DNA of 64,000 nt, taken from assembly GCA_001917135.1 (NCBI GenBank), contig MNTT01000015.1, positions 260,222 to 324,221 of the forward strand, written 5' to 3'. Of this stretch, positions 15,708-59,660 are shown piece after piece; within the stretch, counting starts at the first letter, position 1, and every line of letters starts with the position of its first letter. The notes below the pieces were generated by a model, which worked only from the letters and a program-made list of their open reading frames with translations, was not told where the DNA came from and did not search any database. The translations under genes and the position numbers were made by a program. The DNA is from Acetobacter sp. 46_36. GTDB lineage: Bacteria > Pseudomonadota > Alphaproteobacteria > RF32 > CAG-239.

Positions 15708-17453
15708 TTAATCGTAAAGATTTGGTAAAATCTCTTCTTTTTTGCCTGTGTTTATTTTTTGTTTGTCTGCTTTTTTCAAAGCAGAGATAAAAGCAGTAGC
15801 ATCAAAAAAGGTTTCGTTATCCGAATATAAGAGCTGATTAAGCAGATGTAACTGTTGCGAAAAGCCTTCGCTGCCGGATTTTTCGGCAATGATATTAAAA
15901 TTGGCAATATTTTCATCGCCATATTTTACTTTAGCCCATTTCAGCAGAAATTTCTTAGCTGTTTTATAGTCTTTTCTTTTTATAGCTCTGATAACCTCGT
16001 CACGATATATGCGGGCATGATTTTTTCTGCGGCGCATTAACATCAAAAAGGCAAAAGCAAAAAGAACAAAAGAGATAAGGGCATATAGATAAAAACTCTT
16101 ACTATTCTTCGGAAGAAATGGAGGCTCGTTTTTTTTCTGCTGCGGCAGAGAATTGATATTATCTTTGCCTGTATTATGTGCAGAAATTGCAGGAAGCAAA
16201 GGTGTTGTTTTTTCTTCAGTCTGTTCTTCAGGGAGGTTTGTATTCGGGGCAATGTCAATAACTTCTGCAGGAAGCGTTGTTTTTTCAAACAATCCGCTGT
16301 TTACATTAAACCATTCGATTTCCTGCTGGGGAAGTTTAAATTTTCCTGCCTTTTCGGGAATATAAACAACATTGATGGTTGCAGTTGTAACAAGTTGTCC
16401 GTCAACGGCAGACATGCTTGTTTCCGGTTTTTCCGGATACTGCTTAAAACCTTCTATGTCAGGAAATTGTAAAGCTGGAAACATGTCTTCGGGAAGTCCT
16501 GCTGCCGTTATGGTTATTTTTCGGCTTAAAGCTTCTCCCGCTTTAAATTGAGTTTGTGAAGACCATTCAGCCTGCATTGTCAGATTGCTCAAGGGAAGCC
16601 ATACTCCTGAAAATCCGCTTGGTTTAGGTTTAATGGTAATATTTTGCGGTTTGGTTCTCATGCGGACAGGAACTTTTTGCCCGAAAGCGTTGCGAAAATC
16701 GACGCCAAAAGTCATCAGGTCATCTTGAAAATCAGGAAATCCGAAATCAACGTTTTTAATATAAAAGCCATTGAATAAAAACTGCGGAACGGCAATTTTG
16801 CCGCTTTTAAGGGGAAATGCAGCAAAAACATAAGTGAGGACATTCATGTTTTTTCCGTTTATAACATCTTTTTTGATGAAAGGCTTGTTGGAAAGAGGCG
16901 TAATAGTCCAGTTTTTTTGCGTTTCATCGCTGATGTCAAGAGAACTGCCCTGCAGTCCCAGACTGTCATAAATCGTAACCCAAACGGTCAACTGTTGCTG
17001 AACATAAGGCGTTTCCGGACTGAATGTCTGTTCGATTTGGAAATACGGCGAATTGGAATTTTCCTTGCTGTCGGGAACAAAAGCGATATTTGAAACTTCT
17101 TTTACTTCAACTTCGGCATAATTTGAACTCAATCCGCCGAGCGTAATCGGTTTTATGGTAATTTTTCCTGTTTTAAGCGGTTTTAAGCCAATCGTCCACC
17201 TTTTGGTTTGTGTCAATGTTCCGTTAATATAATTTATTTGTCGGGCGGCATAATTGGAAACAATCTGAAAATCTTGTTGCAATGCACTTAAATCGGGATT
17301 TTCATCACTGTTACCGTTATAATCAATAGTCAAATTTAGGGTATCGCCCTCCGACATAGCGTTCTTGTCCAAATTAATGTTTATTTCTGCCGCATGAACG
17401 TGGAAAGCAAATAAACAGCCAAAGAAAAAAGTAAACAGGTTAAATATTTTCAT
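15708..17453 (-). CDS. batD: BatD-like protein (Bat aerotolerance-operon family), signal peptide + C-terminal TM
   Basis: Secreted 581-aa protein ending in a TM segment and a cytoplasmic tail. Last gene of a batA/batB-batC/batD-like cluster with overlapping stops/starts. Confidence 0.6.
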   Translation of the reverse strand: MKIFNLFTFFFGCLFAFHVHAAEININLDKNAMSEGDTLNLTIDYNGNSDENPDLSALQQDFQIVSNYAARQINYINGTLTQTKRWTIGLKPLKTGKITIKPITLGGLSSNYAEVEVKEVSNIAFVPDSKENSNSPYFQIEQTFSPETPYVQQQLTVWVTIYDSLGLQGSSLDISDETQKNWTITPLSNKPFIKKDVINGKNMNVLTYVFAAFPLKSGKIAVPQFLFNGFYIKNVDFGFPDFQDDLMTFGVDFRNAFGQKVPVRMRTKPQNITIKPKPSGFSGVWLPLSNLTMQAEWSSQTQFKAGEALSRKITITAAGLPEDMFPALQFPDIEGFKQYPEKPETSMSAVDGQLVTTATINVVYIPEKAGKFKLPQQEIEWFNVNSGLFEKTTLPAEVIDIAPNTNLPEEQTEEKTTPLLPAISAHNTGKDNINSLPQQKKNEPPFLPKNSKSFYLYALISFVLFAFAFLMLMRRRKNHARIYRDEVIRAIKRKDYKTAKKFLLKWAKVKYGDENIANFNIIAEKSGSEGFSQQLHLLNQLLYSDNETFFDATAFISALKKADKQKINTGKKEEILPNLYD

Positions 17454-19374
17454 CTCTATATCTGTCCTTTACATATTCTTTTTTTATAAATTCACGCAGT
17501 AACCCTCCGGGATCTTCAGGGATTTCCCGATATTGCCTCTGCATCATGATTGCCTCACCGTCATATTGCTCATTTTCGTTTCCCTGTTGAGCCCTGACCA
17601 GATTGACGGACTGTTCCTCTTGTTGCCTTTCTGTTCCGTTATTATCGTTTCCTGGAGTATTTCTGCTCTGGGCTTCGTCCTCTCCCCCAAGAGTGGCCTC
17701 AGCCGGCTGTTGCTTATTTTCACTGTTTTTTTGAGAACTGGTTTTATCGCTTTTTTCAGAATCCGTCTGTGTTTTTTGCTGTTGTTCGTCAGTATTCGTT
17801 TGCGCGTTTCTGTTTTCTTCTTCTGTTTTGGAGGCGGTAGAATTGCCCTGTTCCGTTTTAGGAGAGGCTTCCGGTGTGTTTTTATCGTTTTGCTGTGATT
17901 GGCTTTGACGCTGTCCGTTTTGGCCGGTTTGATTTTGGGAAGACTGTTTTTGCTGCTCCTGCTTCTCTTTATTGTTTTGCGGCGATGGATTGTTATTTGA
18001 ACTTTGGTCTTGTCTGGGTTTCTGTTCTTGCGCATCGTTTGTAGAAGGATTTTGCTGTTTTTGATTATCGCCGCACTCAAGAACGGATGGGTCTTGTTTT
18101 GCTTTTTCAAATAATTCATTTATAACTGTAAGATTATATTCGGCATCACTGTTTTTTGCATCAGCCTCAAGCGCTTTGGCAAAAGCTTCTTTTGCTTCAT
18201 TATATTTGCACATTTTTGTCAGAATGACGCCTTGGTTATAAAAAGAAAGGCTGCTGTTGGATTTCTGAAATTCTTTTAAGGCATCTTCAGGCCTGCCCTG
18301 TTTGTAAAGGGTTGCTCCTATCCAGTCCGTGTTCTTAAAAAACTTGAGAGCCTGTTCATATTGCCCTTTTTGAAACAGTCTGAGGCCTTCCTGATCATTA
18401 TTCAGAAAAAATCCGGCATAAGCCTGCAACGGAAACAACAATAAAACAAGAACAATCATTCCCCGCCGGAAAAACATCAAAGTGCAAAACAGGGGGATAA
18501 ACAACAGATAATATCCGTAATCTTCAAAATCAGAACGCATATTTTGGCTGCGTTTAATTCTTTCTTCGTTAATTTTTGTGATTTCATTGACAAGTTTTTG
18601 CGTATTTGCACTTCTAACGCTTAAATAGACGCCGTTTCCGGTATCTGCCAAAACTTTGAGCTTTTCGTTTCCTGAAAATGATGTATCAATAACGTGAACT
18701 TTGTAATTAAGGGCAGATGCTTTTTTGACGTGTTGTAATGCCAAGTCAAACCGCTGCCCGACGTCGGAAGTAAATAAAATAATGCTGCCCTGCGCATAAC
18801 CTGCGGCTTTAAATCGTTCAATTGCCAAATCAACAGCCCGGTCAAGCCGGTCGCCGTTGTCCGGAACAATGTCCGGTCTGATTTGCGGCAGAAGGTTTTT
18901 TAATAATTTGACATCGTCAGCAATCGGCGTAATGACATACGGTTCCTCCGAATATACTTCCAGGCCGAACTGCCCCTGCGGAATGTGTTCTGCCAAATCG
19001 GAAATCATAAATTTAGCCCGGTCAAGTCTGGAAGGCGTGATATCCGTAAGTTGCATATCCTGCGCCAGACTGAGGACAAACATATTCGGATTTTCCACGG
19101 CAAGGGAAGGGATTTCCGTTTTTTTCCATGCCGGCCCGGCAGCCGCAATGGCCGCCACGGCCAATCCCGTATAAATGAGTTTTTTTACGGAAAAATGCCT
19201 TTGCCCGCTATTGCTGACCAAAAGAAAATTTAACAAATTTTTATCACAAACATCTGCCCACGACGAAGCATTTCCACCTGTTTTTAATTTCTTAAAAAAC
19301 AAAAGCAGAGGAAGCAGCAGAAAAACCAGCAGCCATGGGCGCAAAAAATGAAAATTATGGAATAAATCGTTCAT
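17440..19374 (-). CDS. BatB/BatC-like fusion: N-terminal TM + von Willebrand A domain + TM + TPR repeats + ~230 aa Q/N/S/E/K-rich low-complexity tail
   Basis: vWA-like region (DLSRTQ-type motifs, LFTSDVGQ), TPR-like stretch (YEQALKFFKN...AKEAFAKALEADAKN). The C-terminal half is almost all Q, N, S, E, K, T. Confidence 0.6.
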   Translation of the reverse strand: MNDLFHNFHFLRPWLLVFLLLPLLLFFKKLKTGGNASSWADVCDKNLLNFLLVSNSGQRHFSVKKLIYTGLAVAAIAAAGPAWKKTEIPSLAVENPNMFVLSLAQDMQLTDITPSRLDRAKFMISDLAEHIPQGQFGLEVYSEEPYVITPIADDVKLLKNLLPQIRPDIVPDNGDRLDRAVDLAIERFKAAGYAQGSIILFTSDVGQRFDLALQHVKKASALNYKVHVIDTSFSGNEKLKVLADTGNGVYLSVRSANTQKLVNEITKINEERIKRSQNMRSDFEDYGYYLLFIPLFCTLMFFRRGMIVLVLLLFPLQAYAGFFLNNDQEGLRLFQKGQYEQALKFFKNTDWIGATLYKQGRPEDALKEFQKSNSSLSFYNQGVILTKMCKYNEAKEAFAKALEADAKNSDAEYNLTVINELFEKAKQDPSVLECGDNQKQQNPSTNDAQEQKPRQDQSSNNNPSPQNNKEKQEQQKQSSQNQTGQNGQRQSQSQQNDKNTPEASPKTEQGNSTASKTEEENRNAQTNTDEQQQKTQTDSEKSDKTSSQKNSENKQQPAEATLGGEDEAQSRNTPGNDNNGTERQQEEQSVNLVRAQQGNENEQYDGEAIMMQRQYREIPEDPGGLLREFIKKEYVKDRYRDENI

Positions 19375-20387
19375 TTCAGGTATCTCCCCGGCAAAAACAA
19401 CAGAAACAATGCCAAAATAAGGGCAAAAGTCAAAGGAATATAAAACAAGTCTTTTTTCTCCTGCACGATATTGCCCTCGCTTTTAGCCGGCTCCAACTGG
19501 TCAATTTTTGTATATATTTCAGCCAGCGAGTTTACGTCTGTTGCTCGAAAATAGTTTCCTTTTGTTTTTTGAGCCAGCTCCTTCAGGCTTTTTTCATCGA
19601 GTTCGCCATTGCCGAGTCCAAACAGTGAGCCGAGAAAGTTACGGTCGGAACCGACGCCGACGGTATATATTTTTATTCCCTCTTTTTCTGCCAGGCCGAT
19701 GGCTTGTGCCATGCTTAGGGAACCGTCGTTATTTTCTCCGTCCGTGAGCAAAATGATAACTTTATTGTTTTTTTCTTTTTCTTCCCGCAGATTTTTTAAT
19801 GCCAGACCCAGAGCATCGCCGATAGAAGTCGAATTGCCGGCCATACCTGCATCAGCATTATTCAGAATTTCTGCAACGGCATTTTTGTCAAAGGTAAGCG
19901 GAGACTGTACATAAGCGCGTGTTCCAAAAAGAATTAACCCAAGCCGGTCTTCCGTTCTTTTTTGCACAAAAGAGCCGACAACAGCTTTTACGGCTGTCAG
20001 CCTGTCAATCCTTTGGGTTCGGGACAAATCCGGTTGCAGCATTGACGGTGATATGTCTATAACGAGCATAATATCTCTGTTTTCAGCCTTAAGACGGTAT
20101 GGTTCGCCGACAAGTTGAGGACGTGCGGCAGCAATAACAAGCAGCACCCATAAAGAAAAAAGATAAAGATATTTAACGGAAAGCCAAGCTCTGCTTCCCA
20201 AAGCCGAAAATGCCGTTTGTTCAGATTTTGCCTGAATATATTTGATATCTTTTAAAAAGGGAACTTTTAATGCATCGCCGTGTACACCCCTGGCTTTGGG
20301 AAACAGAAAAAAAACGGCGAAAGGAAACAGCAGCAACCAAAAAAATTGCGGATATTCAAAAGTGGTCATAGATTTTCCCCTATCCAT
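19371..20387 (-). CDS. batA: BatA-like von Willebrand A domain membrane protein
   Basis: Two N-terminal TMs, vWA MIDAS motif (LVIDISPSM...DGENNDG), C-terminal TM. Confidence 0.7.
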   Translation of the reverse strand: MDRGKSMTTFEYPQFFWLLLFPFAVFFLFPKARGVHGDALKVPFLKDIKYIQAKSEQTAFSALGSRAWLSVKYLYLFSLWVLLVIAAARPQLVGEPYRLKAENRDIMLVIDISPSMLQPDLSRTQRIDRLTAVKAVVGSFVQKRTEDRLGLILFGTRAYVQSPLTFDKNAVAEILNNADAGMAGNSTSIGDALGLALKNLREEKEKNNKVIILLTDGENNDGSLSMAQAIGLAEKEGIKIYTVGVGSDRNFLGSLFGLGNGELDEKSLKELAQKTKGNYFRATDVNSLAEIYTKIDQLEPAKSEGNIVQEKKDLFYIPLTFALILALFLLFLPGRYLK

Positions 20388-21382: not shown

Positions 21383-22687
21383 TTACTTTTCGTCAGATTT
21401 GGAATACAGGGCCAGAGCTTTTACCAAATCTAAAGCGCGGACAAGTTGATAGTCAGCCAAATCTTCCTTGCTTTTGCCGTTTTTCTTTTCATTTCCGGCA
21501 TCTATGTCGCTGTCGTTTTTCAAGGCATTATTTAAATCGGCCTCGCTGATATTTAAGGTGTAAGACTCAAGTTCTTCAATCTTAGCAGGTTTAACCTCAA
21601 CATCGGGCTCAATGCCTTTCGCCTGAATAGAACGCCCGGACGGTGTATAATATCTGGCTGTTGTCAGGCGCATCGCCCCGTAATCCCGAAGCGGAATAAC
21701 GGTTTGAACCGAACCTTTGCCGAATGACTTTTCGCCTAAGATAATTGCTCTGTGGTGGTCTTGCAGCGCACCTGCCAGAATTTCGGAAGCCGAGGCCGAA
21801 CCTTCGTTGATAATGACGACAATAGGCAGCCCTTTGGCAATATCGCCTTCGTTTGCCATATATTTAACCGTATCCGCCTCATTGCGCGAACGGGTGGATA
21901 CGATTTCCCCTTTTTCCAAAAACAGATCCGAAACGTCAACCGCTTGGTCTAACAGCCCGCCGGGATTGTTTCTGACGTCAATGACAATGCCCAGCAGTTT
22001 GTTTTTAAGTTTCTTTTTTGCTTTGGTAATTGCTTCGCTGACAGATTTGTCAACATCTTCCGTAAACGAAGAAATTCTGATGTAAACAATAGAGTCTTCC
22101 TTGATTTCATTCTTAACGGACTGGATTTTGATTTCCTGCCGTTTAATCGTCAGTTCAATCGGTTTGGAGTTGACTCTGCGTATGGACAGTTTGACTTTTT
22201 CGCCGACTTTGCCGCGCATTTTGCTGACGGCATCGTTTAAGCTCATGCCGACTACGGTTTCTCCGTTAATGTTTGTGATATAGTCGCCGGCCTTGATACC
22301 CGCTTTTGCCGCCGGAGTGTCGTCAATCGGCGAAACGACTTTAACCAAACCGTTGTCCATGGTAACTTCGATTCCCAAGCCGCCAAATTTGCCTTTTGTC
22401 TGTTCGCTCATATAATTAAAGCTGTCAGCATCCAGATAGCTTGAATGGGGATCCAGCGATGTCAGCATTCCGTTAATTGCCGATTCGATAAGTTTCTTGT
22501 CAGAAACTTCTTCTACATAATTAAGCTTTGCCCGCTCCATAACTTCGCCGAACAAATTCAAGAGTTCGTACGTGTTGGCATCATCGTCTTTGCTGGTCGC
22601 AGCCCTGACATTTGCAGCGCTTATCATCAGTCCTGCAAATAAAGAAATAAACAACAACTTACTTTTTCCCATTTTCTTTCCTATCAA
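21383..22687 (-). CDS. ctpA: Carboxy-terminal processing protease (S41 family) with PDZ domain
   Basis: Signal peptide, PDZ region (GIKAGDYITNINGE), S41 catalytic region (NEGSASASEILAGALQD ... KSFGKGSVQTV). Confidence 0.85.
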   Translation of the reverse strand: MIGKKMGKSKLLFISLFAGLMISAANVRAATSKDDDANTYELLNLFGEVMERAKLNYVEEVSDKKLIESAINGMLTSLDPHSSYLDADSFNYMSEQTKGKFGGLGIEVTMDNGLVKVVSPIDDTPAAKAGIKAGDYITNINGETVVGMSLNDAVSKMRGKVGEKVKLSIRRVNSKPIELTIKRQEIKIQSVKNEIKEDSIVYIRISSFTEDVDKSVSEAITKAKKKLKNKLLGIVIDVRNNPGGLLDQAVDVSDLFLEKGEIVSTRSRNEADTVKYMANEGDIAKGLPIVVIINEGSASASEILAGALQDHHRAIILGEKSFGKGSVQTVIPLRDYGAMRLTTARYYTPSGRSIQAKGIEPDVEVKPAKIEELESYTLNISEADLNNALKNDSDIDAGNEKKNGKSKEDLADYQLVRALDLVKALALYSKSDEK

Positions 22688-22693
22688 TAAAGT

Positions 22694-23941
22694 TTAACCG
22701 GCAATCCATGGCGCGGGGTTAATTGGATGCCTGTCTTTCCGTATCTCGACATACAGCTTTGCATTACTGCTGTCGGGCATGGTACCAACCGGTTCTCCGG
22801 CCAGAAGCATTTGCCCCGGTTCGCAGTCGATAACGCCCAAACCGGCAAGCAGAGACAGGTATCCGTCTCCATGTTCTACTATAATAATATTACCATATCC
22901 TTTAAATGGGCCGGAAAAAATGACCGTTCCGTCGTATGGTGCGATAACCTGCGCTTCCGGGCGAGTTTTGTAAACAATTCCTTTGGAGGTTACGCCTTTG
23001 GAAAGCATTTGCCCGTATTCCGTTATGACCGTTCCCCTGACTGGTCGCGACAGCGAACCTTTGGCTTTTGCAAACCTGCCGCCCTTAGCTTGTTTTTTTA
23101 TGTCTTCGTGTTCTTTTGTACTGATAACGTGCGGCGTTTTTTGCCGTTTTAATTCTTCCTGTCGTTTCAAAGCCGCAAGTCTTTCTGCCTCTTCCTGTTT
23201 TTTGCGGGCAAGTTCTTTCTGTCGCTCCAGTTCATCAAGCAAATCCCGCAGGTTTTTTGCTTTGGAAGAAAGATTTTCCGCCAATTTCTGCGTTTCGGCG
23301 CCTTTTGTTTCCAACACCTTGCGCATACCGGCTTTTTTCTTCATCAGCGTTCTCATTTCTGCCTGTTGCTTTTCCAGCAGTTCCTGTCTTTTCTTCGTTT
23401 CCGCGACAGTTTCTTCGACTTTTTTCTTCTGCTGGTAAACGCTGTCCAAATCTGTTTTGAGTTTTGAAGACTTTTCGTTCAAAAAAGGCACCGTTTCCCG
23501 GAGAAGAATGGCGCTTCTTATAATATCCACCGGCGAAAGCGGTTGTAAAATGACCGCTTCCGACGGGTTAAGCGACATATTTTGCAGCGAAGCCAGCGTT
23601 TGTACCAAAGAATTGTTTTCTTTCGCAAAAGCTGCTTCTTTGGTTGCCAAATCCTCTTTCAATGCCGCTAGTTTGTTTTCCAGTTCGGACATTTTGTCCT
23701 CATTGTTCTGGATTTTTTGTGCCAGTCCGATAACAGTCTTGTCAATCTTGGACAATTCCAGATTGAGCTGTAGCGCCTGTGCCTGCAATTTTCTGGATTC
23801 TATCGTTTTCTTTTTGGCTTCAGCTTCTATCCTCTTGACATCGCTTTCGGATATATCTTTGGCATAACCCGAATTCCCGCTCGGGCAATTCAGGACAAAA
23901 GCTGTCAACGCTATGCCAAAGAATAATATCCGTTTCATCAA
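22694..23941 (-). CDS. EnvC-like murein hydrolase activator: coiled-coil plus C-terminal M23/LytM peptidase domain
   Basis: Long coiled-coil N-terminal half. C-terminal M23-like domain (GYGNIIIVEHGDGYLSLLAGL). Confidence 0.75.
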   Translation of the reverse strand: MMKRILFFGIALTAFVLNCPSGNSGYAKDISESDVKRIEAEAKKKTIESRKLQAQALQLNLELSKIDKTVIGLAQKIQNNEDKMSELENKLAALKEDLATKEAAFAKENNSLVQTLASLQNMSLNPSEAVILQPLSPVDIIRSAILLRETVPFLNEKSSKLKTDLDSVYQQKKKVEETVAETKKRQELLEKQQAEMRTLMKKKAGMRKVLETKGAETQKLAENLSSKAKNLRDLLDELERQKELARKKQEEAERLAALKRQEELKRQKTPHVISTKEHEDIKKQAKGGRFAKAKGSLSRPVRGTVITEYGQMLSKGVTSKGIVYKTRPEAQVIAPYDGTVIFSGPFKGYGNIIIVEHGDGYLSLLAGLGVIDCEPGQMLLAGEPVGTMPDSSNAKLYVEIRKDRHPINPAPWIAG

Positions 23942-23945
23942 AACC

Positions 23946-25475
23946 CTATTTTTCCAAGAGGGAGTTGCCCGTCATCTCTTTCGGTTTCTCAATATGCATC
24001 AAGTCCAAAAGTGTCGGGGAAATATCGGCAAGCCGCCCGTCTTTCAGGCCTTTTACCGGTGGCTCTGCGTTATAAAGTACGGCCTGAACTTTCCCGACGG
24101 TATGCGCGGTATAAGGTTCGCCCGTCTTTTCATCAACCATTTTTTCAACGTTGCCGTGGTCGGCTGTAACAAACAGAACTCCGCCGACGTCTTTAATGGC
24201 TTTCATCACTTTTCCCAAACAGTCGTCAACCGCCGCAACCGCTTTCAGCGCCGCGTCCATAATACCGGTATGCCCGACCATATCTCCGTTGGCAAAATTG
24301 CAGATAATGACGTCGTACTTTTGTTTTTCAATCGCGTCAGTTAACGCTTCCGTAACTTCATAAACGCTCATCTCCGGCTTCAGGTCATAAGTTGCGACTT
24401 TCGGGCTGTTGATAAGGATTCGCTCTTCGCCTTTAAACTCTTTTTCTTCACCGCCGTTGAAGAAGAACGTAACGTGTGCATATTTTTCCGTTTCTGCGAT
24501 TCGGAGCTGGGTCAGTCCGTGGTTTGCCACCACTTCACCAAAGATGTTTTTCAGTGCTTCCGGCGCAAAAATCGTCTTCATAAAGCGATTGTGATCAACT
24601 GAGTATTCAACCATTCCGACCAGTATGGCGAAGTTGATGATTTTCTTTCTCTCAAAACCGGTAAATTCCTTGTCGCCCAAGGCATATAAGATTTCTCTCG
24701 CTCGGTCGGCGCGGAAGTTAATCATCAGCACGGCGTCGCCGTCTTGTGCTCCCTGATAATCGCCGACAACGGCCGGAACGACGAATTCATCCGTTACGCC
24801 GTCATTGTAAGACGCGGTAATTGCTTCGTCCGCGGTGGCAAAACGCTTGCCGTCGGCGAGAACGATGTTGTCGTAGGCCTTTTCCACTCTGTCCCAGCGC
24901 TTGTCGCGGTCCATGGCGTAAAAGCGCCCGGCAATAGTCGCAAGCTTGACGTTCGGCATATCCTTGATGTTGTTTTCAAAATCGCTCAAAAAGCCTTTGC
25001 CCGACTGCGGCGGCGTGTCTCTGCCGTCCAAAAAGGCGTGTACGTCAACGTTGATGCCGTTTTTCTGCAAAATTCCGCAGACCGCTTCAATATGTTTCTG
25101 GTGGGAATGGACGCCTCCCGGCGACATCAGCCCCATCAAGTGGCAGGTTCCTTTTGTTTCTTTGAGTTTGTTAATCAGCTCGACAAGTGTCGGATTCTTC
25201 TTCAGGCTTCCGTCTTTGATTGCTAGGTCGATTTTCGGCAAATCCTGCATAACGACGCGTCCCGCGCCCAGATTCGTGTGCCCGACTTCCGAATTTCCCA
25301 TTTGTCCTTCCGGCAGTCCGACATCATATCCGGACGTTTCCACAAAACAATGCGGACAGGTCGCCAGCAGGTTGTGCCAGTTGGGCGTATGCCCCTGTTC
25401 AATGGCATTGTCGGGGGTAACGTTTGCCCGGTATCCCCAGCCGTCCAGAATCAATAGCATTACAGGTTTTTGCAT
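23946..25475 (-). CDS. gpmI: 2,3-bisphosphoglycerate-independent phosphoglycerate mutase
   Basis: MQKPVMLLILDGWGY..., metal-binding and phosphoserine motifs of iPGM, 509 aa. Confidence 0.9.
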   Translation of the reverse strand: MQKPVMLLILDGWGYRANVTPDNAIEQGHTPNWHNLLATCPHCFVETSGYDVGLPEGQMGNSEVGHTNLGAGRVVMQDLPKIDLAIKDGSLKKNPTLVELINKLKETKGTCHLMGLMSPGGVHSHQKHIEAVCGILQKNGINVDVHAFLDGRDTPPQSGKGFLSDFENNIKDMPNVKLATIAGRFYAMDRDKRWDRVEKAYDNIVLADGKRFATADEAITASYNDGVTDEFVVPAVVGDYQGAQDGDAVLMINFRADRAREILYALGDKEFTGFERKKIINFAILVGMVEYSVDHNRFMKTIFAPEALKNIFGEVVANHGLTQLRIAETEKYAHVTFFFNGGEEKEFKGEERILINSPKVATYDLKPEMSVYEVTEALTDAIEKQKYDVIICNFANGDMVGHTGIMDAALKAVAAVDDCLGKVMKAIKDVGGVLFVTADHGNVEKMVDEKTGEPYTAHTVGKVQAVLYNAEPPVKGLKDGRLADISPTLLDLMHIEKPKEMTGNSLLEK

Positions 25476-25649
25476 TATATTTACTCCATATCTGATTTAT
25501 TTTATCTCTAACCGAATATATAGGTCACTTTAAAGCAGAAAGCATTATATTTATCCATATTTTTTTAGGTTATAAACAATATAAGTCTTGTTAAGACAAA
25601 AAGATAGTTTTATATTGAAAGCAAGATTGGTTTATTTTGGGAAAAACGG

Positions 25650-26747
25650 ATGAAAATATCCCCTTTGTGGCTGTTCTGTCTGGCCGCGTCGCCCGCCTGT
25701 GCCGGCACGCTGGAAACGGATTATGCGCTGGAACTCAACAATTATTACGGCTATACGGATTATGCCAAACCGTATAACCGCCTGCATAAACAGAATAATC
25801 TGAATTCCTCGCTGAATGCGTACGGGCGGCTGACCTACGAGTTTAACCGCGAATACGCCGCCTCGCTTATCGGCTATTTTATGATAGATTCGGCAAAGGA
25901 AGTTGAAAACTATAATCAGGGAATATGGGGCGAAGAGGTCTATGTACTGGCGGAAACCCCGTTCGGCGAATTTTCCGCCGGGCAGAATTATAACGTTGCT
26001 TATGCGTTTGCCGTCGGCGCGCCGAATGTCGGAGCCTGGCGGGTAAATAATACCGATTTGGTTAATTTCATCACCAATCCGAACTGGTACAAAAAAGGCG
26101 GCAGGATGTCTTATAAGACCCTGAATTCAACCTATATCAACACCGACGGCGCTTCCCCGAAAGTCAGCTATGTAACGCCGGAATGGCAGGGGATGAAGCT
26201 GGGTGCGACCTTTGTGCCGGAAACCTACAGCCAGTCCGGGCTTGTCGCCAAAGACGCGCCGTATAAGGACAAAAGCGCCTATATTCTCGGTGCGTACGGT
26301 TCGTGGGATGTTTTCGGCTATGAGTTGGAAACATCGCTCGGTTTTGCTGATTTTGATAAAAATGACAAAGAATACTCCGCAGGAATCAGTATCTACCGCA
26401 AAGGGTGGACGCTTGGAGCCTCTTATCGCAAAACCGAAACTTCCGGTTCCGCTTATGCGCTGGATAAGGCGAACCTGTACGACGCATATAGGGAAGGGCA
26501 GGCGTATAATGTCGGCTTGAGCTATGCCATCGGGCCGTTTACGACCGGAATTGCTTATTTTGATTCCAAAGCTGATCACAGCGGCAATCGCGATAAAATT
26601 ATCAGTTTTTCCAACAGTTGGCAGTATAACAAATATGTCGGTTTTTCGCTGACAGCCGCTCATTTGGAGTCGAAAGGAGCGGATTCGCTGCCGGAAAACA
26701 ATGCCAAAGGCTATGCTTTCATTTTCGGGCTGGAGTTGAAGTTATGA
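25650..26747 (+). CDS. Outer-membrane beta-barrel protein, porin-like
   Basis: Signal peptide (LFCLAASPACAG), alternating amphipathic beta-strand pattern, C-terminal aromatic terminus (...FGLELKL). Confidence 0.55.
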   Translation: MKISPLWLFCLAASPACAGTLETDYALELNNYYGYTDYAKPYNRLHKQNNLNSSLNAYGRLTYEFNREYAASLIGYFMIDSAKEVENYNQGIWGEEVYVLAETPFGEFSAGQNYNVAYAFAVGAPNVGAWRVNNTDLVNFITNPNWYKKGGRMSYKTLNSTYINTDGASPKVSYVTPEWQGMKLGATFVPETYSQSGLVAKDAPYKDKSAYILGAYGSWDVFGYELETSLGFADFDKNDKEYSAGISIYRKGWTLGASYRKTETSGSAYALDKANLYDAYREGQAYNVGLSYAIGPFTTGIAYFDSKADHSGNRDKIISFSNSWQYNKYVGFSLTAAHLESKGADSLPENNAKGYAFIFGLELKL

Positions 26748-27358
26748 ACAAAATTTGTATAGTTTCATCGGATTCGCTGTTTGCTGGAGATTTGGCGCAG
26801 CAAATTCTGCGCGAAGTGCCGGAAACGGAAATTCTCTCCGCCGATTCGGTACAAAATGCCGATATGCTTCTGCTTGACGCGGAATCCGGCGAAACGGCGT
26901 CCTGTGCCGGGCAAAAGGCTGAAATTCCTGTGGTTCTCTTCTCATCGGAGCACGAATTGTCCGATTATGCCGATGTGGTGATAAAAAAACCGTTTGCCCT
27001 TTCCGGGTTTTTGCAGGCCTTGCAGAACAAAACCCTTCTGCCTAAAGTTCGCCGCAAGGAGTGTCTTAATTTTAAGGAATATAGCCTCTATCCCGTCAAA
27101 AAGGAGATTGTATCGTCCAAATCCGGCAAAACGACAAAGCTGACCGAAAAAGAAGTTGATATTCTTAAGTATTTGTACCAAAACCTACCCGCCGCGGCCA
27201 GTAAAGAAGATTTGCTTGAAAATGTCTGGGAATACAGCGCCGGCGTAACCACCCATACCATAGAAACGCATATTTACCGTTTACGCCAGAAAGTGGAGCA
27301 GGACGGCGGCAGCCAGCTGATATTGACGGAAAACAGCGGCTATCGTTTGAATGTATGA
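26744..27358 (+). CDS. OmpR/PhoB-family winged-helix transcriptional regulator with a compact receiver-like N-domain; no sensor kinase nearby
   Basis: C-terminal trans_reg_C domain (LTEKEVDILKYLYQN...HTIETHIYRLRQKV...GYRL). The N-domain retains the candidate acceptor Asp (MLLLDAES) and the K-P-F motif. Start overlaps the porin stop (ATGA). Confidence 0.65.
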   Translation: MNKICIVSSDSLFAGDLAQQILREVPETEILSADSVQNADMLLLDAESGETASCAGQKAEIPVVLFSSEHELSDYADVVIKKPFALSGFLQALQNKTLLPKVRRKECLNFKEYSLYPVKKEIVSSKSGKTTKLTEKEVDILKYLYQNLPAAASKEDLLENVWEYSAGVTTHTIETHIYRLRQKVEQDGGSQLILTENSGYRLNV

Positions 27359-27558: not shown

Positions 27559-28596
27559 CTATTTGGATAGCCCCAGTGGCGTAAACGTAAATCGTATCTC
27601 TTTCCAGTCGCTGTATCTGGAGCCGCTTTGTGCCGACAATACCTTAAAGACACCGTAAACGTCCTGTGCTATATAAATTGCGCGTTCGGCGCTGTCTGCC
27701 AATGCCTGAAAATAGGTGTCAGTCCTGTAACGCCGCATATCTTCAATCTTTACGGATTCGATAAGTCCCTCTTTTGTCAGCTTGACGCTGATGACAACCT
27801 CAATATTGCGGTCGTCTTTACCGCCGGCAATCGTTTTCCATGATTCCTGAATTTTAGATTTTACAAAATCAATGCCGGATACCGACAGTTCGCTGAAATA
27901 CGACCCTTGGCTGTTTCCCCCCTCTATACCGAGGTTGTTGACCGGCTCGTCATAAGGAACCTGTGCCGGAGCATCTTCCTCGCCGATTTGTTTCTGCAAA
28001 TCATCAACGGAATTCATCAGGCTTTGCAGCGGATTAGCGCTTCTTACGGCATTTTTGTTTGGTTTTGCTGCCGGTTTACTGGCTGGAGTCACCTTTTTGT
28101 CGGTTTCGGTTTTTTTCGGCTGAACCGGCTTTTTATTCGGTTTAATCTGCGGCTTTTTCTGGGGAATTGGTGCCGGTTTTTTCTTTTCTTTCAGTGGCTC
28201 TTTCGATTCCTTTTTCGGTTCTTCTTTGGTTTCTTCCGGTTTTGGAGCTTCCTCAATCAGCGACGGCGATTTTATTTCCGGCGCTTTTACTTCGGGAACA
28301 GGCTCCGGTTTGGGTTTTTCTTCAACTTTCGGTGCAGGAGCTGGCTCGGCTTTTTTAGGGGTAAAACTCTCTTCGACAGGCTTTTCTTTGCGTGTCGCTG
28401 GTTTTTTTTCGGGACCGCGAACTGCTTTTGCCGGAATATTTGTCGTATCAGAAATTTTTACGTTCTCCAAATCGACCATAATCGGCGGCTGTTCATCAAA
28501 ATTACGTTTGCTTCCCAAAAACGGTATGTCAAAAACACATAGCAAAACTACTGCAATGTGTAAAGCAACCGATTTATAAACGTAATTTTTCTGCAT
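27559..28596 (-). CDS. tolA: TolA-like protein (N-terminal TM anchor, long Pro/Lys/Glu-rich spacer, C-terminal domain)
   Basis: Immediately downstream of tolQ-tolR; single TM (VALHIAVVLLCVF); PKPEPVPE/KKP repeats. Confidence 0.65.
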   Translation of the reverse strand: MQKNYVYKSVALHIAVVLLCVFDIPFLGSKRNFDEQPPIMVDLENVKISDTTNIPAKAVRGPEKKPATRKEKPVEESFTPKKAEPAPAPKVEEKPKPEPVPEVKAPEIKSPSLIEEAPKPEETKEEPKKESKEPLKEKKKPAPIPQKKPQIKPNKKPVQPKKTETDKKVTPASKPAAKPNKNAVRSANPLQSLMNSVDDLQKQIGEEDAPAQVPYDEPVNNLGIEGGNSQGSYFSELSVSGIDFVKSKIQESWKTIAGGKDDRNIEVVISVKLTKEGLIESVKIEDMRRYRTDTYFQALADSAERAIYIAQDVYGVFKVLSAQSGSRYSDWKEIRFTFTPLGLSK

Positions 28597-28610: not shown

Positions 28611-29039
28611 CTAATTTTTGCTTTTCCGAGCTTCAGTTTTCAGCCCGACTTTGCTGAATCCTGCATCTTTTAACATAGCCATCAATCCGATAACACTGCC
28701 GTAAGATGAAGATGTATCTCCGGAAATGGTAACCGTTACGTCTTTGTTTTCTCCTTTGATTGCCTTAATCTTGTCAATAATCGTTTCCGGTTCGATTTGG
28801 CTTTGGCCGATGTAATAATGCCCGTCTTTGTCAACACTGATATTAATAGAGGTATCTTTGCCATTCAGCGTGCCTCCGCCGACTTTCGGCAGGTCAAGCG
28901 GGATTCCTGACGTCATAAGCGGCGCTGCAACCATAAAAACTACTAAAAGCACCATCATAACGTCCATAAGGTTCGTCATATTGATATCAGCGTTGCGACG
29001 GCTGCCCCGCCTTTGGATTCTTCCGTTAATAATTGCCAT
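28611..29039 (-). CDS. tolR: Biopolymer transport protein TolR/ExbD
   Basis: MAIINGRIQRR...INMTNLMDVMMVLLVVFMV typical TolR/ExbD N-terminus. ATG at 29037-29039 lies 4 nt after the tolQ stop, with GGAG upstream. The track start at 29150 would overlap tolQ by 107 nt. Confidence 0.8.
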   Translation of the reverse strand: MAIINGRIQRRGSRRNADINMTNLMDVMMVLLVVFMVAAPLMTSGIPLDLPKVGGGTLNGKDTSINISVDKDGHYYIGQSQIEPETIIDKIKAIKGENKDVTVTISGDTSSSYGSVIGLMAMLKDAGFSKVGLKTEARKSKN

Positions 29040-29043
29040 ATCT

Positions 29044-29790
29044 TTATTCTCCGGCCATTTCTGCTTTAATAGTCGTATCGTCAATTTCCCGCGATAAAAT
29101 GCTTGAAAATTCTGCCATAAAGTTTTCGAGCTTTTTGGCATAGCGGTCAATATCCGTGGTAATCATATTATAGGCAATATAAGCGGGAATTGCGGCAATC
29201 AAGCCAAATGCGGTAGTAAACAGGGCTTCGGCAATACCCGGAGCAATAGAAGTCAGAGAGTTGCTTTGGGTAACTGCAATAGCGTTAAAACATGAGATAA
29301 TGCCCCAAACTGTTCCAAACAGCCCGACCAGCGGCGCCACCGAACCGGTAGAAGCCAAAAAGCCCAGATGATTGTCCATCTCGTCAAGCTCTTTGTCCAT
29401 GGAAACCATCATCGCCTTTTCGATTCGCTGCTGTAAAGAAACGCCGCGCAGCCCCCTGTCTGTTTTGGACTTCATAATGTTCGTACGGCGCCATTCTTTC
29501 ATTGCCGCAACAAACATAGCCGACATCGGATCCTGCGGATTGCCGATGGAATCGTACAGCTTGTCAAGCGAACCGCCGGACCAAAAACGCTCTTCAAACG
29601 TCTTGGACAGGCGTTTGACTTGGCGCAGCGTATTTATTTTTTCAAAAATAATCGCCCATGACCAGACCGAAGCGGCAATCAACCCAATCATAACCGCTTT
29701 GGTAATCAGGTCGGATGACCATACCATATCCCACATCGAAAGTTGATTTACAACCTCGGCAGCAACCTCTGTTTCCATCTTTTTCCCCAT
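29044..29790 (-). CDS. tolQ: Tol-Pal system protein TolQ (MotA/TolQ/ExbB proton channel)
   Basis: Three TMs and a conserved C-terminal MotA/TolQ/ExbB region (GLFGTVWGIISCFNAIA...PGIAEALFTTAFGLIAAIPAYIAYN). Confidence 0.85.
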   Translation of the reverse strand: MGKKMETEVAAEVVNQLSMWDMVWSSDLITKAVMIGLIAASVWSWAIIFEKINTLRQVKRLSKTFEERFWSGGSLDKLYDSIGNPQDPMSAMFVAAMKEWRRTNIMKSKTDRGLRGVSLQQRIEKAMMVSMDKELDEMDNHLGFLASTGSVAPLVGLFGTVWGIISCFNAIAVTQSNSLTSIAPGIAEALFTTAFGLIAAIPAYIAYNMITTDIDRYAKKLENFMAEFSSILSREIDDTTIKAEMAGE

Positions 29791-29863
29791 TTTTGATAAT
29801 TTTTTAAACTTCTTTGCTAAGCTTTAACATATAATCGTAAAAAATCAACTAATCAAAAAGAAA

Positions 29864-29905
29864 AAAGAGTTGTTCTTAAGATTTAACTCTTAAAAACAAC
29901 TCTTT
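29864..29905 (-). terminator. Rho-independent terminator downstream of the small membrane-protein gene
   Basis: Perfect 11-bp inverted repeat AAAGAGTTGTT...AACAACTCTTT (loop ~20 nt), followed on the minus strand by a TTTTTTCTTTTT run. Confidence 0.5.
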
Positions 29906-29919
29906 CTCTTAAATACATG

Positions 29920-30231
29920 TTACCAGCCATGATACAAACAATAGCCGGCAACAATAATTACGGCGGCAATTACCAAAAGGGCTGTCCATCCGATAAGTGC
30001 CAAAATGCCATTTCCGAATAATTTGTGTATTCCAGTAACCCAGTAAACCAGGTATAAACTGAAAAACAAAACTTTTCTAACTGACCATCCAAAATCATGG
30101 ATTGCATCCACAATTGTTGGAAAAAAGTAGTCGTTAGAAAAACCGATTTTGGCATCGACATATAGTACGAGCCAAACGCTCAAAAGGGCGCAAATGCCAG
30201 CCCAAATGAACGAGAAGATACCTTCCTTCAT
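29920..30231 (-). CDS. Small integral membrane protein (3 predicted TM), unknown function
   Basis: 103 aa; hydrophobic segments FSFIWAGICALLSVWLVLYV, LFFSLYLVYWVTGI, ALIGWTALLVIAAVIIVAGY. Confidence 0.45.
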   Translation of the reverse strand: MKEGIFSFIWAGICALLSVWLVLYVDAKIGFSNDYFFPTIVDAIHDFGWSVRKVLFFSLYLVYWVTGIHKLFGNGILALIGWTALLVIAAVIIVAGYCLYHGW

Positions 30232-37469: not shown

Positions 37470-37865
37470 CCAAGGTGGTTGGATAGCTGCGCCGGGATTT
37501 CTTCCGGTGAGGAAAGTCCGAGCGTCATGGAAACGGGGCACCGGATAACGTCCGGCTGGAGAAATCTAAGGGAAAGTGCCACAGAAAATTACCGCCAAAA
37601 TTATTTTGGTAAGGTTGAAAAGGCGAGGTAAGAGCTCACCGCAAAGATAGTAATATCCTTTGGCAAGGCAAACCCTGCCCGACGCAAGACCAAATTAGGA
37701 GGGCGGCTTTAAGCCGTTACATGGGGCGTTTCCACCCTGCTCCAGAGGTAGGTCGCTCGAACCGAATGGCGACATTCGGTCCAGATGAATAGCTATCGCT
37801 TTGAATCTTTGCCTTCGGGTAAAGCAAATGACAAGTACAGAACTCGGCTTACAGACCACCTTTGA
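37470..37865 (+). ncRNA. rnpB: RNase P RNA (bacterial type A)
   Basis: Conserved GGAAAGTCCG(A/G)GC (P4 5' strand), ACGGGGCACCGGATAACGTCCGGC, GTGCCACAGAAAAT, AGGTAAGAGCTCACC... and a P1 helix of CAAGGTGGT (5') with ACCACCTTG (3'). Preceded by an AT-rich promoter region. Confidence 0.8.
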
Positions 37866-37884
37866 TTTTTTATGGGAGAGAATA

Positions 37885-38739
37885 ATGCAGTATCAGCACA
37901 CGTTAAAAAATGCTATTGAAATAAAGGGAATAGGACTGCACTCCGGTTGTACTGCCGTAATGACGATAGAGCCTGCTCCGGAAAATCACGGCATTCGGTT
38001 TCAACGGACTGATATTGCGGGAGTTGAAACGATTCCGGCATTGTATTCTAATGTCGTTGATACAAGGAATTGTACCTGCTTAGGTGCCTCTCCGCAAAAT
38101 ATCGTCAGTACGATAGAACATATAATGTCGGTCTTTTATATCCTCGGCATAGATAATGCGCTGGTTAAGGTTAATAATCCCGAGGTTCCGATTCTTGACG
38201 GCAGCGGCCGCGAATTTCTGCGTATTTTGCAATCGGCGGAATTGGCTGTTCAAAATGCCCCGCGCTGTATTTTGAAAGTTTCCCGCGAGGTCAGGTTTGA
38301 AGATGGCAAAGGCGCAAGCATAACGCTGTTGCCGGCAGAGACTCTGCACATTTGCTTTGATATAGAGTTCCCTTCCAAAATTGTCGGACATCAGAATTTT
38401 GATAAAGACATAACCAAAGAAGTCTTTGCCACGGAAATTGCTCCGTGCCGGACTTTCTGCGAAAAATATCAGGTCGACTATCTGCAGTCAATCGGACTGA
38501 TAAAAGGCGGTTCGCTGGACAATGCTGTTGTTTTGGATGGAGAAACGATATTGAATCCCGGCGGTTTTCGCGTGCCGAATGAATGTGTAAACCACAAAGT
38601 AATGGATACCATTGGTGATTTATATACTTCGGGGTATTATATATTGGCAAAAGTTGTTGCCAACAGAAGCGGACATTATCATAATAACGAAATCCTGAAA
38701 CAGCTGTTTGCTTCTGCGGATAATTATGAAATACTGTAA
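37885..38739 (+). CDS. lpxC: UDP-3-O-acyl-N-acetylglucosamine deacetylase
   Basis: MQYQHTLKNAIEIKGIGLHSG..., zinc-binding His residues, LpxC-like throughout. Start chosen at 37885 with GGGAGAG RBS. The track's 37801 start lies inside rnpB. Confidence 0.85.
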   Translation: MQYQHTLKNAIEIKGIGLHSGCTAVMTIEPAPENHGIRFQRTDIAGVETIPALYSNVVDTRNCTCLGASPQNIVSTIEHIMSVFYILGIDNALVKVNNPEVPILDGSGREFLRILQSAELAVQNAPRCILKVSREVRFEDGKGASITLLPAETLHICFDIEFPSKIVGHQNFDKDITKEVFATEIAPCRTFCEKYQVDYLQSIGLIKGGSLDNAVVLDGETILNPGGFRVPNECVNHKVMDTIGDLYTSGYYILAKVVANRSGHYHNNEILKQLFASADNYEIL

Positions 38740-55984: not shown

Positions 55985-56290
55985 ATGATGTCAAACGTTA
56001 AAATAGCCAAATATATTGCCATATTGCTGGGTGCCTGTATCGTTTTGTGCACTTATTTTGTGTTTTTGAAAATCCTGAATAAGAAAACGGGTATTTCCGG
56101 TGTTCCGGTTTCCACCGAAATAGTGCTGAAAGTTCCTGAAAATGCCGAAGTAAAAGATGTCAGGATAGCCGAGGGAAAAATTTATTTTTTAATGGCATCG
56201 CCTTATGAAGAGAGTTTAGTTATCGTTGACGAAAATGCCCGGCAGGAGATTTTGAAAATTGTTCTGAAAAAGGAGAAAGCCCATGAGTAA
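55985..56290 (+). CDS. Small single-TM protein, first gene of the coupling-protein operon
   Basis: 101 aa, one N-terminal TM (IAILLGACIVLCTYFVFL), AAGGG RBS. No recognisable family. Confidence 0.5.
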   Translation: MMSNVKIAKYIAILLGACIVLCTYFVFLKILNKKTGISGVPVSTEIVLKVPENAEVKDVRIAEGKIYFLMASPYEESLVIVDENARQEILKIVLKKEKAHE

Positions 56291-57380
56291 TGATGATTCT
56301 CTTGATGCCTTTTTGACTGCGGATATGCCGGCGGAGGAAAAGAAAAATAACAAAGACACAAGTTTGGAAGATGAATTTGCCAAGCTTTTGAATGATTTTA
56401 TAAATCAGGATAAACCGGCCGCAAAACCAGATAATAAAAAAACGGAAGATAGTCTGGACAGTTTTCTTGAAAGTTCGGGCAGCGGTCTTGACAGCTTCTT
56501 GACTTCGCCGGTTGTTCCGTCCGAAAACACACCGGCCGCACAGCCGCAGCAGACATCTTTCAATGCGGAATCTGTGGAAAATGCCGCACAGCCGACAGAG
56601 GTGGAGAATTTGTCCGGTCTCGAAGTTCAGTCTGTATTTGCCGCTCCCGAAACCGCGCCGGAAAATATTCAGGCCGACGATACTGCCGCAAATAGGCTGA
56701 AACAGGAAGAGCAGGAATTAGCGCGTGCGGTTGCCAATTTTCAGGATGGCATAGTTGCAATGGCTGACAAAAAAAATCTTAAAGTACCCGATACCGATTA
56801 CAAAGAAGATATGCTGTATCCGAACTATAAGCCCAGTATTGGCAAAAAAATTGCCCAATATCTGCTGGCATGCTGGGATATTATGAATAAATATGATCCT
56901 GAAAATATGAAACGGCTCTCCAAAGATGCCGGAGATGAAGAATATCTCGCTTTTGCCGAAACGCTGAACGATACGGATATGCAGCTTGCCATAATATCGT
57001 ACGTTGAAATTCTTATAAATCTGGAAATTTGCGAGGTCAGCTATGAGCAAAAAAAAGAAATTTTGCAAAAAAATCGGATAAAGCGGGAATTGTATGAAGA
57101 ATATATGGAACTTCAGGAACGAAAAGCCCTGTTTATCAAAAAATTGAAAGAAAAAGATTTTCCGGTAGATGCGGAGCGGCTGATAGGAAATTACTTTCGG
57201 GTTGCACAAAAAGATCCCGACGGCTCGTTTAATGCTTTGGTAAAGAATCCGGCTATGTTTTCTCCGATAGAATTTGAAAAAATCCGGCCCAAATTTTTCG
57301 GATTAATAAAAGTAACGCCCGAAGACGGAATAAAAGCAAATCAAAAAATCGGGCATTTTATAAAAAAACTTAAAGTTTAA
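56283..57380 (+). CDS. Acidic protein: disordered N-terminal half with 3x SLDxFL motif, predicted helical C-terminal domain
   Basis: AAGGAG RBS; start overlaps the previous stop by 8 nt. DSLDAFL / DSLDSFL / GLDSFL tandem motif. No recognisable family. Confidence 0.6.
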   Translation: MSNDDSLDAFLTADMPAEEKKNNKDTSLEDEFAKLLNDFINQDKPAAKPDNKKTEDSLDSFLESSGSGLDSFLTSPVVPSENTPAAQPQQTSFNAESVENAAQPTEVENLSGLEVQSVFAAPETAPENIQADDTAANRLKQEEQELARAVANFQDGIVAMADKKNLKVPDTDYKEDMLYPNYKPSIGKKIAQYLLACWDIMNKYDPENMKRLSKDAGDEEYLAFAETLNDTDMQLAIISYVEILINLEICEVSYEQKKEILQKNRIKRELYEEYMELQERKALFIKKLKEKDFPVDAERLIGNYFRVAQKDPDGSFNALVKNPAMFSPIEFEKIRPKFFGLIKVTPEDGIKANQKIGHFIKKLKV

Positions 57381-57471
57381 TAAAATTTGCCTGATAGCGG
57401 AACGGTTTAAAGTAGACAACCTGCGGTTTTTATGCTAATATAACATAAAAGCATAAAAATCGGAGGCAAAA

Positions 57472-59103: not shown

Positions 59104-59114
59104 GGAGAAGATAA

Positions 59115-59606: not shown

Positions 59607-59660
59607 TTACTTGTTAACCAATCAATGGATATAATGGGAAAATAAAAGCCGGAGAAGAAC

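Follow-up and report, generated by a model that had tools for sequence, protein, structure and literature searches.

What is an OmpR-type regulator with a shortened receiver domain, and with no histidine kinase gene beside it, doing at the 3'-end of a porin gene? The question is raised by a two-gene locus in a 64,000-nucleotide (nt) stretch of DNA from Acetobacter sp. 46_36 (contig MNTT01000015.1, positions 260,222 to 324,221 of the forward strand; hereafter the window), in which a porin gene runs directly into the gene of a 204-amino-acid (aa) regulator. The most probable answer, drawn from sequence comparison and structure prediction, is that the pair would form a two-gene operon of a general porin and a descendant of the envelope regulator CenR with a crippled receiver, acting without canonical phosphorylation and with its dose tied to that of the porin. 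We put the probability of this reading at roughly 0.6. The parts of the locus, numbered from the first nucleotide of the window, are as follows.

25526-25616, forward strand: near-invariant non-coding block 5' of the porin gene (comparison of seven genomes)
25650-26747, forward strand: porin gene (365 aa), general-diffusion porin (open reading frame and Pfam)
26732-26747, forward strand: coupling junction (read directly from the sequence)
26744-27358, forward strand: regulator gene (204 aa), OmpR-type (open reading frame and Pfam)
26744-27028, forward strand: regulator N-domain (aa 1-95), a truncated, degenerate receiver according to a PDB profile search, an AlphaFold2 (AF2) model and residue statistics
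27119-27358, forward strand: winged-helix DNA-binding domain (aa 126-204; Pfam Trans_reg_C)

The two genes meet in the tetranucleotide ATGA at 26744-26747, which is at once the start of the regulator and the stop (TGA) of the porin. A Shine-Dalgarno (SD)-like GGAG at 26732-26735 lies within the final porin codons, separated from the regulator ATG by an 8 nt spacer, and a terminator check of the window pair found no terminator-like site between the two genes. Alone, such a 4-nt overlap would call for no comment, ATGA being the junction met most often in operons. Overlap and an SD within the upstream gene together give the junction, as far as sequence can tell, the anatomy of a translationally coupled pair. 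The start call of the regulator is supported by its N-terminus, M-x-K-I-x-I, which is conserved in homologues. A pseudogene or a mis-called regulator start was considered and rejected, since over 50 species have conserved the length, the N-terminus and the key residues. The stop/start overlap reported in the first-pass annotation is real, and a mis-set stop as its cause is ruled out. In a public record, a 52 kb ENA contig (P0001), a 280-aa gene call contains the 204-aa window regulator at 100% identity; its start has evidently been placed too far upstream, within the porin gene.

The arrangement is shared by many relatives. These were collected by a genome scan with one genome per species, using peptides from the query's own recognition helix as search patterns; 574 relatives were found and the best 80 were kept. 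The short family comprises 52 species-level loci (L006-L057), of which 51 are informative, L021 being cut by a contig end. Within this set (the best 80 of 574), a porin homologue is found directly upstream of the regulator in 50 of the 51 informative loci, and the regulator begins -4 to +16 nt from the end of the porin gene wherever both genes are present. The SD is either within the final codons of the porin gene or spans its stop as TTTTAGGAG; many relatives read TTT TAG GAG, so that the stop is part of the SD. The sole informative exception without a porin is L056 (1481-2767), where the regulator lies 3' of lexA with a 12-nt gap. Three long metagenome contigs carry regulators that are 56-61% identical, in the same gene order as in the window. 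The regulator family consists of proteins of 199-211 aa labelled by Trans_reg_C only. All of L006-L057 derive from metagenome-assembled genomes (MAGs) of uncultured Alphaproteobacteria inhabiting the gut or rumen of humans, mice, rabbits, deer and sheep, a clade that we take to be, probably, GTDB RF32.

Because this tight junction is conserved in 50 of the 51 loci, the pair is not a chance arrangement; porin and regulator appear to be conserved as a stable, lineage-specific two-gene unit in about 50 uncultured gut or rumen Alphaproteobacteria. The synteny check that the first-pass annotation had proposed is thereby answered. That annotation had also called the coupling of a regulator to a porin gene unusual: the overlap itself stands, the ATGA is ordinary alone, and the conservation across the clade had been overlooked. 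In the literature on CenR and on RF32 genomes no description of the short porin-linked variant was found, no search having been aimed at the variant itself.

The block upstream of the porin gene (25526-25616, about 90 nt) hardly varies across seven genomes, although their porin and regulator proteins share only 56-76% identity; the 5' untranslated region and the distal flank of the block do diverge among these genomes. A sigma-70-like promoter, TTGTTA-N17-TATATT, is predicted at 25588-25616, at the end of the conserved block, and is likely the operon promoter. The approximately 60 nt of conserved sequence 5' of its -35 box, still within the block, might be bound by an activator or act as an UP element. 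An RNA element was rejected, as an Rfam search with the 90-nt block returned no match and the sequences diverge directly past the -10 box; since the divergence sets in right there, the block fits a promoter, not an RNA.

The first protein is matched by Porin_4 (Pfam, E 8e-16; 59 bits against a cut-off of 27). A Sec-type signal peptide, MKISPLWLFCLAASPACAG, is seen in its sequence, the C-terminus reads ...GLELKL, and NCBI names its homologues 'porin [Alphaproteobacteria bacterium]'. Its AF2 model (predicted local distance difference test, pLDDT, 76; predicted template modelling score, pTM, 0.74) is a 16-stranded structure with a long internal loop, for which Foldseek gives OmpU, OmpF/OmpC, Omp32 and PorB as the best PDB matches. 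As modelled, the product of the first gene is a general porin of the classical 16-stranded type, in keeping with its earlier description as porin-like. The canonical C-terminal aromatic residue (the beta-signal) is absent from the window porin, whose last residue is Leu. Among 49 complete relatives, with L002 and L004 set aside, 35 porins end in Phe and 3 in Tyr, and the porins of the ATGA-overlap clade terminate in Leu or Ile (26742-26747 in the window; C-termini of L001-L057). A Phe codon before TGA cannot form ATGA, and the loss of the C-terminal aromatic therefore seems to be the price that the porin paid for the gene overlap.

The regulator combines a complete DNA-binding head with a reduced N-domain. 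Residues 128-202 match Trans_reg_C (Pfam, E 8e-19; 68 bits against a cut-off of 26.2), and Foldseek matches of the AF2 model to winged helix-turn-helix (wHTH) domains reach TM-scores of up to 0.8, normalised to target; the winged-helix domain is complete, as first read. Its recognition helix is TTHTIETHIYRLRQKVE.

The N-domain is about 95 aa long against about 117 aa in canonical relatives, some 22 residues shorter. Pfam Response_reg leaves the regulator unmatched even at E<=1. The NCBIfam response-regulator equivalogs align from about residue 42-76 onward only, with NblR on top; naming after any of them (PhoB, MtrA, NblR, others) was rejected, as all scores are far below the cut-offs. A profile made from the N-domain only and searched against the PDB recovers almost solely receiver domains, the best being the PhoP receiver (E 1e-4) in a full-length alignment, in which D45 falls on the acceptor Asp, 'PvvLfSS' on 'PILVLTA' and KPF on KPF. 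The family profile aligns to solved OmpR/PhoB regulators over both domains, and in Foldseek the regulator model as a whole aligns with OmpR/PhoB regulators, among them HP1043, RitR and GlnR of the atypical kind. In alignments with PhoP, VbrR and CenR-like proteins, D45 (codon 26876-26878) and K82 (codon 26987-26989) take the places of the acceptor Asp and the Lys, and in the PDB alignments S67 falls on the Thr. Judged by these alignments, the N-domain is a true receiver homologue, truncated and divergent. The first-pass annotation had taken it for a receiver and had asked for an alignment of the acceptor residues; the Asp and the Lys are there, with Ser at the Thr position, and the presence of D45 upholds the assignment.

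The AF2 model of the regulator (pLDDT 76) runs b1-a1-b2-a2-b3-a3-b4-(coil)-b5-a5 and then into the winged helix. Five strands are predicted, alpha4 is missing and residues 68-77 are coil in this moderate-confidence model; as modelled, the N-domain does not form a complete (beta-alpha)5 receiver fold. Relative to L058, a canonical relative from Rhizobiaceae, three deletions are found, at residues 35-43 (9 residues, alpha2 region), 56-61 (6 residues) and 89-95 (7 residues, alpha4). The second removes the beta3-alpha3 loop, directly past the acceptor Asp. Residues after the acceptor Asp normally include a backbone Mg ligand, and alpha4 is part of the usual face between receiver (REC) domains. Residue statistics were compiled from 56 short-family members, with 8 canonical relatives for comparison.

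Position 8, first acidic position: Ser in 48/56
Position 9, second acidic position: acidic in 29/56
Position 10, third acidic position: Asn in 40/56
D45, acceptor Asp: present in 55/56
Position 67, Thr/Ser at the end of beta4: Ser or Thr in 32/56 (S67 in the window)
Position 79, switch Tyr in beta5: Tyr in 6/56
K82, conserved Lys: present in 55/56
P83, Pro following the Lys: present in 56/56

The window regulator reads S8-S9-D10 at the Mg-binding acidic site, where positions 9 and 10 are Asp in each of the 8 canonical relatives, and position 8 is Asp (7) or Glu (1). The alpha1 residues D16, L17 and Q20 are invariant in the short family despite the low identity of the N-domain (mean pairwise identity 33%, against 64% in the winged helix). 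The receiver had been described as minimal. It is indeed unusually short, and the word understates what has happened: the domain is degenerate, with its acidic Mg pair lost, three deletions, and variable Thr/Ser and Tyr positions.

Where such a protein comes from is indicated by its nearest matches beyond the short family. These regulators (L058-L085, again among the best 80 of 574) measure about 225-280 aa; a receiver is detectable in most of them (Response_reg up to 105 bits), and the best preserved carry a D-D-D triad. A recognition helix T-H-T-x-E-T-H-I-Y-R-L-R-Q-K is common to the short family and its full-length relatives; that of L058, TTHTLETHIYRLRQKIE, is near-identical to the helix of the window regulator. 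Between short family and CenR-like proteins the wHTH identity is about 50%, and an alpha1 motif LxxQ(L/I) is common to both. The window regulator matches L058 with 107 bits in BLAST, and the family profile matches its best solved structure with 52 bits.

CenR is an essential or conserved envelope regulator described in Caulobacter (CC_3743/CCNA_03859), Rhodobacter (RSP_0847), Sinorhizobium and Brucella (BOV_1929/BMEI0066). In L058 the regulator gene is followed by a gene for a cyclic nucleotide monophosphate (cNMP)-binding protein and then, on the other strand, by xthA, lolA and ftsK; a cenR-cNMP operon is known from Brucella (BMEI0066/0067; PMC2737717). Its acceptor Asp is D55, as in B. ovis CenR (PMC10746171), and the spacing of its acidic triad, D50 and D55 mirrors that of D11-13, D51 and D56 in Rhodobacter CenR (PMC9275681). 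Because of the downstream cNMP-binding gene, D55 and the matching acidic spacing, L058 is read as CenR-type. L059 (Caulobacteraceae), L061 and L062 place their regulators against xthA-lolA(-ftsK) as L058 does, and in about 24 short-family loci the next genes after the porin-regulator pair, on the opposite strand, are xthA and/or lolA. In L074, a short regulator without a porin adjoins lolA-ftsK and faces waaA-lpxK. The shared chromosomal position and the shared helix lead us to read the short regulators as CenR descendants, and for that descent there is good evidence at the level of sequence and gene order. The first-pass annotation contained neither this ancestry nor the clade-wide conservation, both of which emerged from the helix, the synteny and the 50 of 51 loci.

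It might be argued that the short regulator is no CenR descendant at all, and that it belongs to an independent OmpR-family lineage, or is a paralogue existing beside a canonical CenR, with helix and synteny coincidental or convergent. The relatives were fetched by query-derived patterns and reduced to the best 80 of 574, no NCBIfam equivalog fits, and the window itself is without the xthA-lolA neighbourhood, its pair being located between gpmI and tolA. Against this stand three independent lines: the approximately 50% identity of helix and flanking wHTH to CenR-like proteins (with the 107-bit match to L058), the shared alpha1 motif, and the regulator-xthA-lolA arrangement in about 24 short-family and 4 canonical or near-canonical loci, which together make a separate origin very improbable.

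Receiver scores within the CenR-like set fall off in steps. Response_reg reaches 97-105 bits in L058, L059 and L065, 74 in L063 and 46 in L085; it gives 28-41 bits in L062, L064, L071, L073 and L081, and leaves L061, L060, L074, L078 and the whole short family unmatched. The CenR-like lineages with a weakened or undetectable receiver (L061, L062, L064, L071, L073, L081) include a Hyphomicrobiales MAG, Telmatospirillum, Acetobacteraceae and others. This distribution suggests that receiver erosion in the CenR-like group is recurrent, having occurred repeatedly and independently. In L060 (unclassified alphaproteobacterial MAG; 4773-5375) and L078 (Holosporaceae MAG; 4983-5606), a short regulator is the last gene of gpmI-M23-ctpA-regulator, with overlapping junctions. 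An earlier survey found no CenR homologues in Holosporales, so that L078 represents a CenR-like protein in a lineage reported to be free of CenR (PMC9275681). A porin as neighbour of canonical CenR genes was looked for and rejected, with just two weak porin-like matches, 1.5-2 kb off (L071, L085).

How the regulator is controlled depends on what is left of its receiver and on possible partners. No HisKA, HATPase_c or Response_reg match was found among 42 window open reading frames scanned with Pfam (including every frame of at least 300 aa and all but a few of 180-290 aa), no second OmpR-type protein was found in the window or in 85 loci with the family hidden Markov model, and neither the window nor the fetched loci contain EssR/EssS-like genes. 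For the scanned frames, the presence of a kinase or partner regulator in the window was rejected accordingly, which agrees with the earlier remark that no histidine kinase is encoded nearby. The label 'orphan' attached to the regulator in that annotation is another matter: the absence of a neighbouring kinase holds, and orphan status does not follow from it and is unproven, because CenK is encoded apart from cenR in the model species Caulobacter and Rhodobacter (PMC9275681).

With its Mg ligands lost, the loop past the Asp deleted and the switch residues variable, the regulator is unlikely to undergo canonical Asp phosphorylation. The contrary view is that it is an ordinary phospho-accepting regulator, its D45 phosphorylated by a distant CenK-like kinase and its short receiver merely compact. 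D45, K82-P83 and the alpha1 residues D16/L17/Q20 are kept in 55-56 of 56 members at an N-domain identity of 33%, the window has Ser at the Thr position, and alpha1 is the classical kinase-docking surface of receivers. The Mg-holding acidic pair, however, has become Ser and a variable residue, six post-Asp residues are deleted, alpha4, the Thr/Ser position and the switch Tyr are either missing or not conserved, the Response_reg model fails, and the scanned reading frames of the 64-kb window contain no kinase. We regard phospho-competence as unlikely overall, and keep it as a contender because D45, K82 and alpha1 are invariant and CenK is unlinked in model species.

A further option takes its lead from Brucella, where CenR works with D55A or D55E alleles, can do without its own Asp on plates, appears to be without a cognate kinase, binds EssR via REC domains and stimulates phosphotransfer from EssS to EssR (PMC10746171). 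By analogy, the remnant receiver could be mainly a partner-binding module that modulates another two-component pair by receiver-receiver contact and shares its DNA sites. The Brucella contact, made by a protein whose own Asp is dispensable on plates, and the conserved alpha1 surface of the short family speak for such a role, whereas the deletion of alpha4, part of the usual REC-REC dimer face, and the lack of EssR/EssS-like genes in the window and the fetched loci speak against it. As the principal function of the domain it is rather improbable; it is compatible with a CenR descendant acting without phosphorylation, and would refine that reading.

The preferred reading, a porin operon with a phosphorylation-independent CenR descendant, would work as follows. 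One promoter near 25588-25616 would drive porin and regulator as an operon. Ribosomes finishing the porin would reinitiate, or initiate close by, at the porin stop and so translate the regulator, as the anatomy of the junction indicates. The regulator would then be made in fixed proportion to the porin, its dose being tied to porin synthesis because it is read from the same mRNA at the porin stop. Having kept a CenR-type recognition helix, it would bind DNA as an envelope-gene regulator without canonical Asp phosphorylation, and might occupy CenR-type sites constitutively or under other control, with the remnant receiver serving as a structural, oligomerisation or partner-binding module.

Several observations weigh against this reading. 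The near-invariance of D45 (55/56), K82 (55/56) and P83 (56/56), together with alpha1 D16/L17/Q20, is the pattern to be expected of a domain that still depends on phosphotransfer or on the docking of a kinase or partner. The lack of a kinase gene nearby is no proof of its absence from the genome, given the separate location of cenK in model species (PMC9275681). The AF2 model of the regulator is of moderate confidence (pLDDT 76), and CenR is the nearest OmpR-family clade that we infer from a scan by the query's own helix, confined to the best 80 of 574. The expected binding sites were not recovered either. The Rhodobacter CenR box, TGA-N8-TGA, occurs upstream of cenR and of tolQ (PMC9275681). 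Among 53 sequences from upstream of the porin gene it shows no enrichment (observed 4, expected 3.5), and the tolQ upstream regions of seven genomes contain no copy. As the motif carries little information, this difference from CenR is weak evidence; autoregulation via the published box was rejected on these counts. When the sequence upstream of the porin gene was screened de novo for 10/11-bp direct repeats, none exceeded shuffled controls. The k-mers TATAAACA and AAAGCACTATT are enriched there in the gpmI-adjacent subset only, and common descent may account for them.

Compared with CenR itself, the short regulators have a near-identical recognition helix, the alpha1 LxxQ, an acceptor Asp preceded at a distance of five residues by another Asp, and a Lys-Pro-Phe, and many relatives share the xthA-lolA(-ftsK) neighbourhood. 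They also keep envelope company: porin, tolQRA, M23 peptidase and ctpA, and in L074 lpxK and waaA. Unlike CenR, they have a receiver shorter by about 22 residues with three deletions, the D-D-D triad changed to S-x-N/D and variable Thr and switch Tyr positions; the domain escapes Pfam Response_reg, and they are encoded by the second gene of a porin operon (50/51 informative loci).

A second comparison is with the atypical, phosphorylation-independent OmpR/PhoB regulators, namely HP1043/HsrA of Helicobacter, ChxR of Chlamydia, GlnR of actinomycetes, RitR of streptococci and NblR of cyanobacteria. Common to these and the short family are a complete wHTH behind a receiver-like domain with a partial phospho-acceptor pocket, the lack of an adjacent kinase, and a presumed constitutive or alternative activation. 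The atypical group keeps a full-length (beta-alpha)5 receiver and often loses the Asp; the short family, by contrast, keeps Asp and Lys, while Mg site, beta3-alpha3 loop and alpha4 are removed. To our knowledge, no atypical OmpR/PhoB regulator is the distal gene of a porin operon. The enterobacterial EnvZ-OmpR system (ompF/ompC) likewise links an OmpR-family regulator to general porins. OmpR is co-transcribed with its kinase EnvZ, has a canonical receiver and needs phosphorylation; the short regulator differs in sharing its operon with the porin, and its control of the porin is only putative.

The genes on either side of the pair, identified from Pfam labels (those of orthologues for the first three), are these.

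21383-22687, reverse strand: ctpA
22694-23941, reverse strand: M23 peptidase gene
23946-25475, reverse strand: gpmI, divergent from the pair
27559-28596, reverse strand: putative TolA-like gene, by position and Pro/Lys/Glu-rich composition only
28611-29150, reverse strand: tolR (Pfam ExbD)
29044-29790, reverse strand: tolQ (Pfam MotA_ExbB), convergent to the pair

In the window, as in about 20 other loci, the gpmI-M23-ctpA cluster (21383-25475) flanks the pair in divergent orientation. Adjacency of tolQRA is limited to the close clade of the window (L001-L008). In Rhodobacter, CenR controls tolQRAB. Because it is restricted to L001-L008, the tolQRA adjacency is no evidence of regulation, and it was rejected as a functional clue. 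Upstream of tolQ (29791-29990, reverse strand, also in L001-L008) the preceding gene, for a small membrane protein, has a conserved hairpin terminator, and past it lies a conserved TTGATTAGTTGATTTTTTAC-N-TATATG stretch that is probably the tolQ promoter.

Elsewhere in the window, a bacterial RNase P RNA of class A is found at 37471-37867 on the forward strand (283 bits). It overlaps an over-long, TTG-start lpxC reading frame (37801-38739), whose Pfam match starts only at residue 32. At 56283-63230 (forward strand), three consecutive reading frames (365, 543 and 441 aa) without a Pfam match are located directly upstream of a TraG/VirD4-like coupling protein (61011-63230), and the region may be the edge of a conjugative or type IV secretion system island. 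BatD-like and VWA/TPR (BatA/BatB-like) genes occupy 15708-20387 on the reverse strand; with a DUF4381 gene, which adjoins them in relatives, they resemble an aerotolerance-type operon.

The porin-regulator pair reveals no new kind of system. What is new is the manner of receiver reduction, with Asp and Lys kept, the clade-wide placement in a porin operon, and the occurrence of CenR-like proteins in Holosporales. A bolder extension, which we consider improbable, would make the pair a kinase-free envelope homeostat: an unphosphorylatable CenR descendant dosed by translation of the major porin would slave envelope transcription to porin output, D45-K82 and alpha1 would serve a new ligand or partner, and CenR receivers would have been dismantled repeatedly in host-associated Alphaproteobacteria (the gut clade, Holosporaceae, some Acetobacteraceae).

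The dependence of CenR on phosphorylation is an open point, the phospho-site of the Brucella protein being dispensable on plates (PMC10746171). About 50 uncultured gut and rumen species offer a natural experiment on it, in which Mg site, loop and helix have been removed, the DNA-reading head has been kept and the gene has been tied to the main porin. Their comparison shows which parts of a receiver stay necessary once phosphorylation has, probably, been abandoned. For annotation, it provides a rule: a 'winged helix-turn-helix domain-containing protein' of this family is to be read as a CenR-type regulator.

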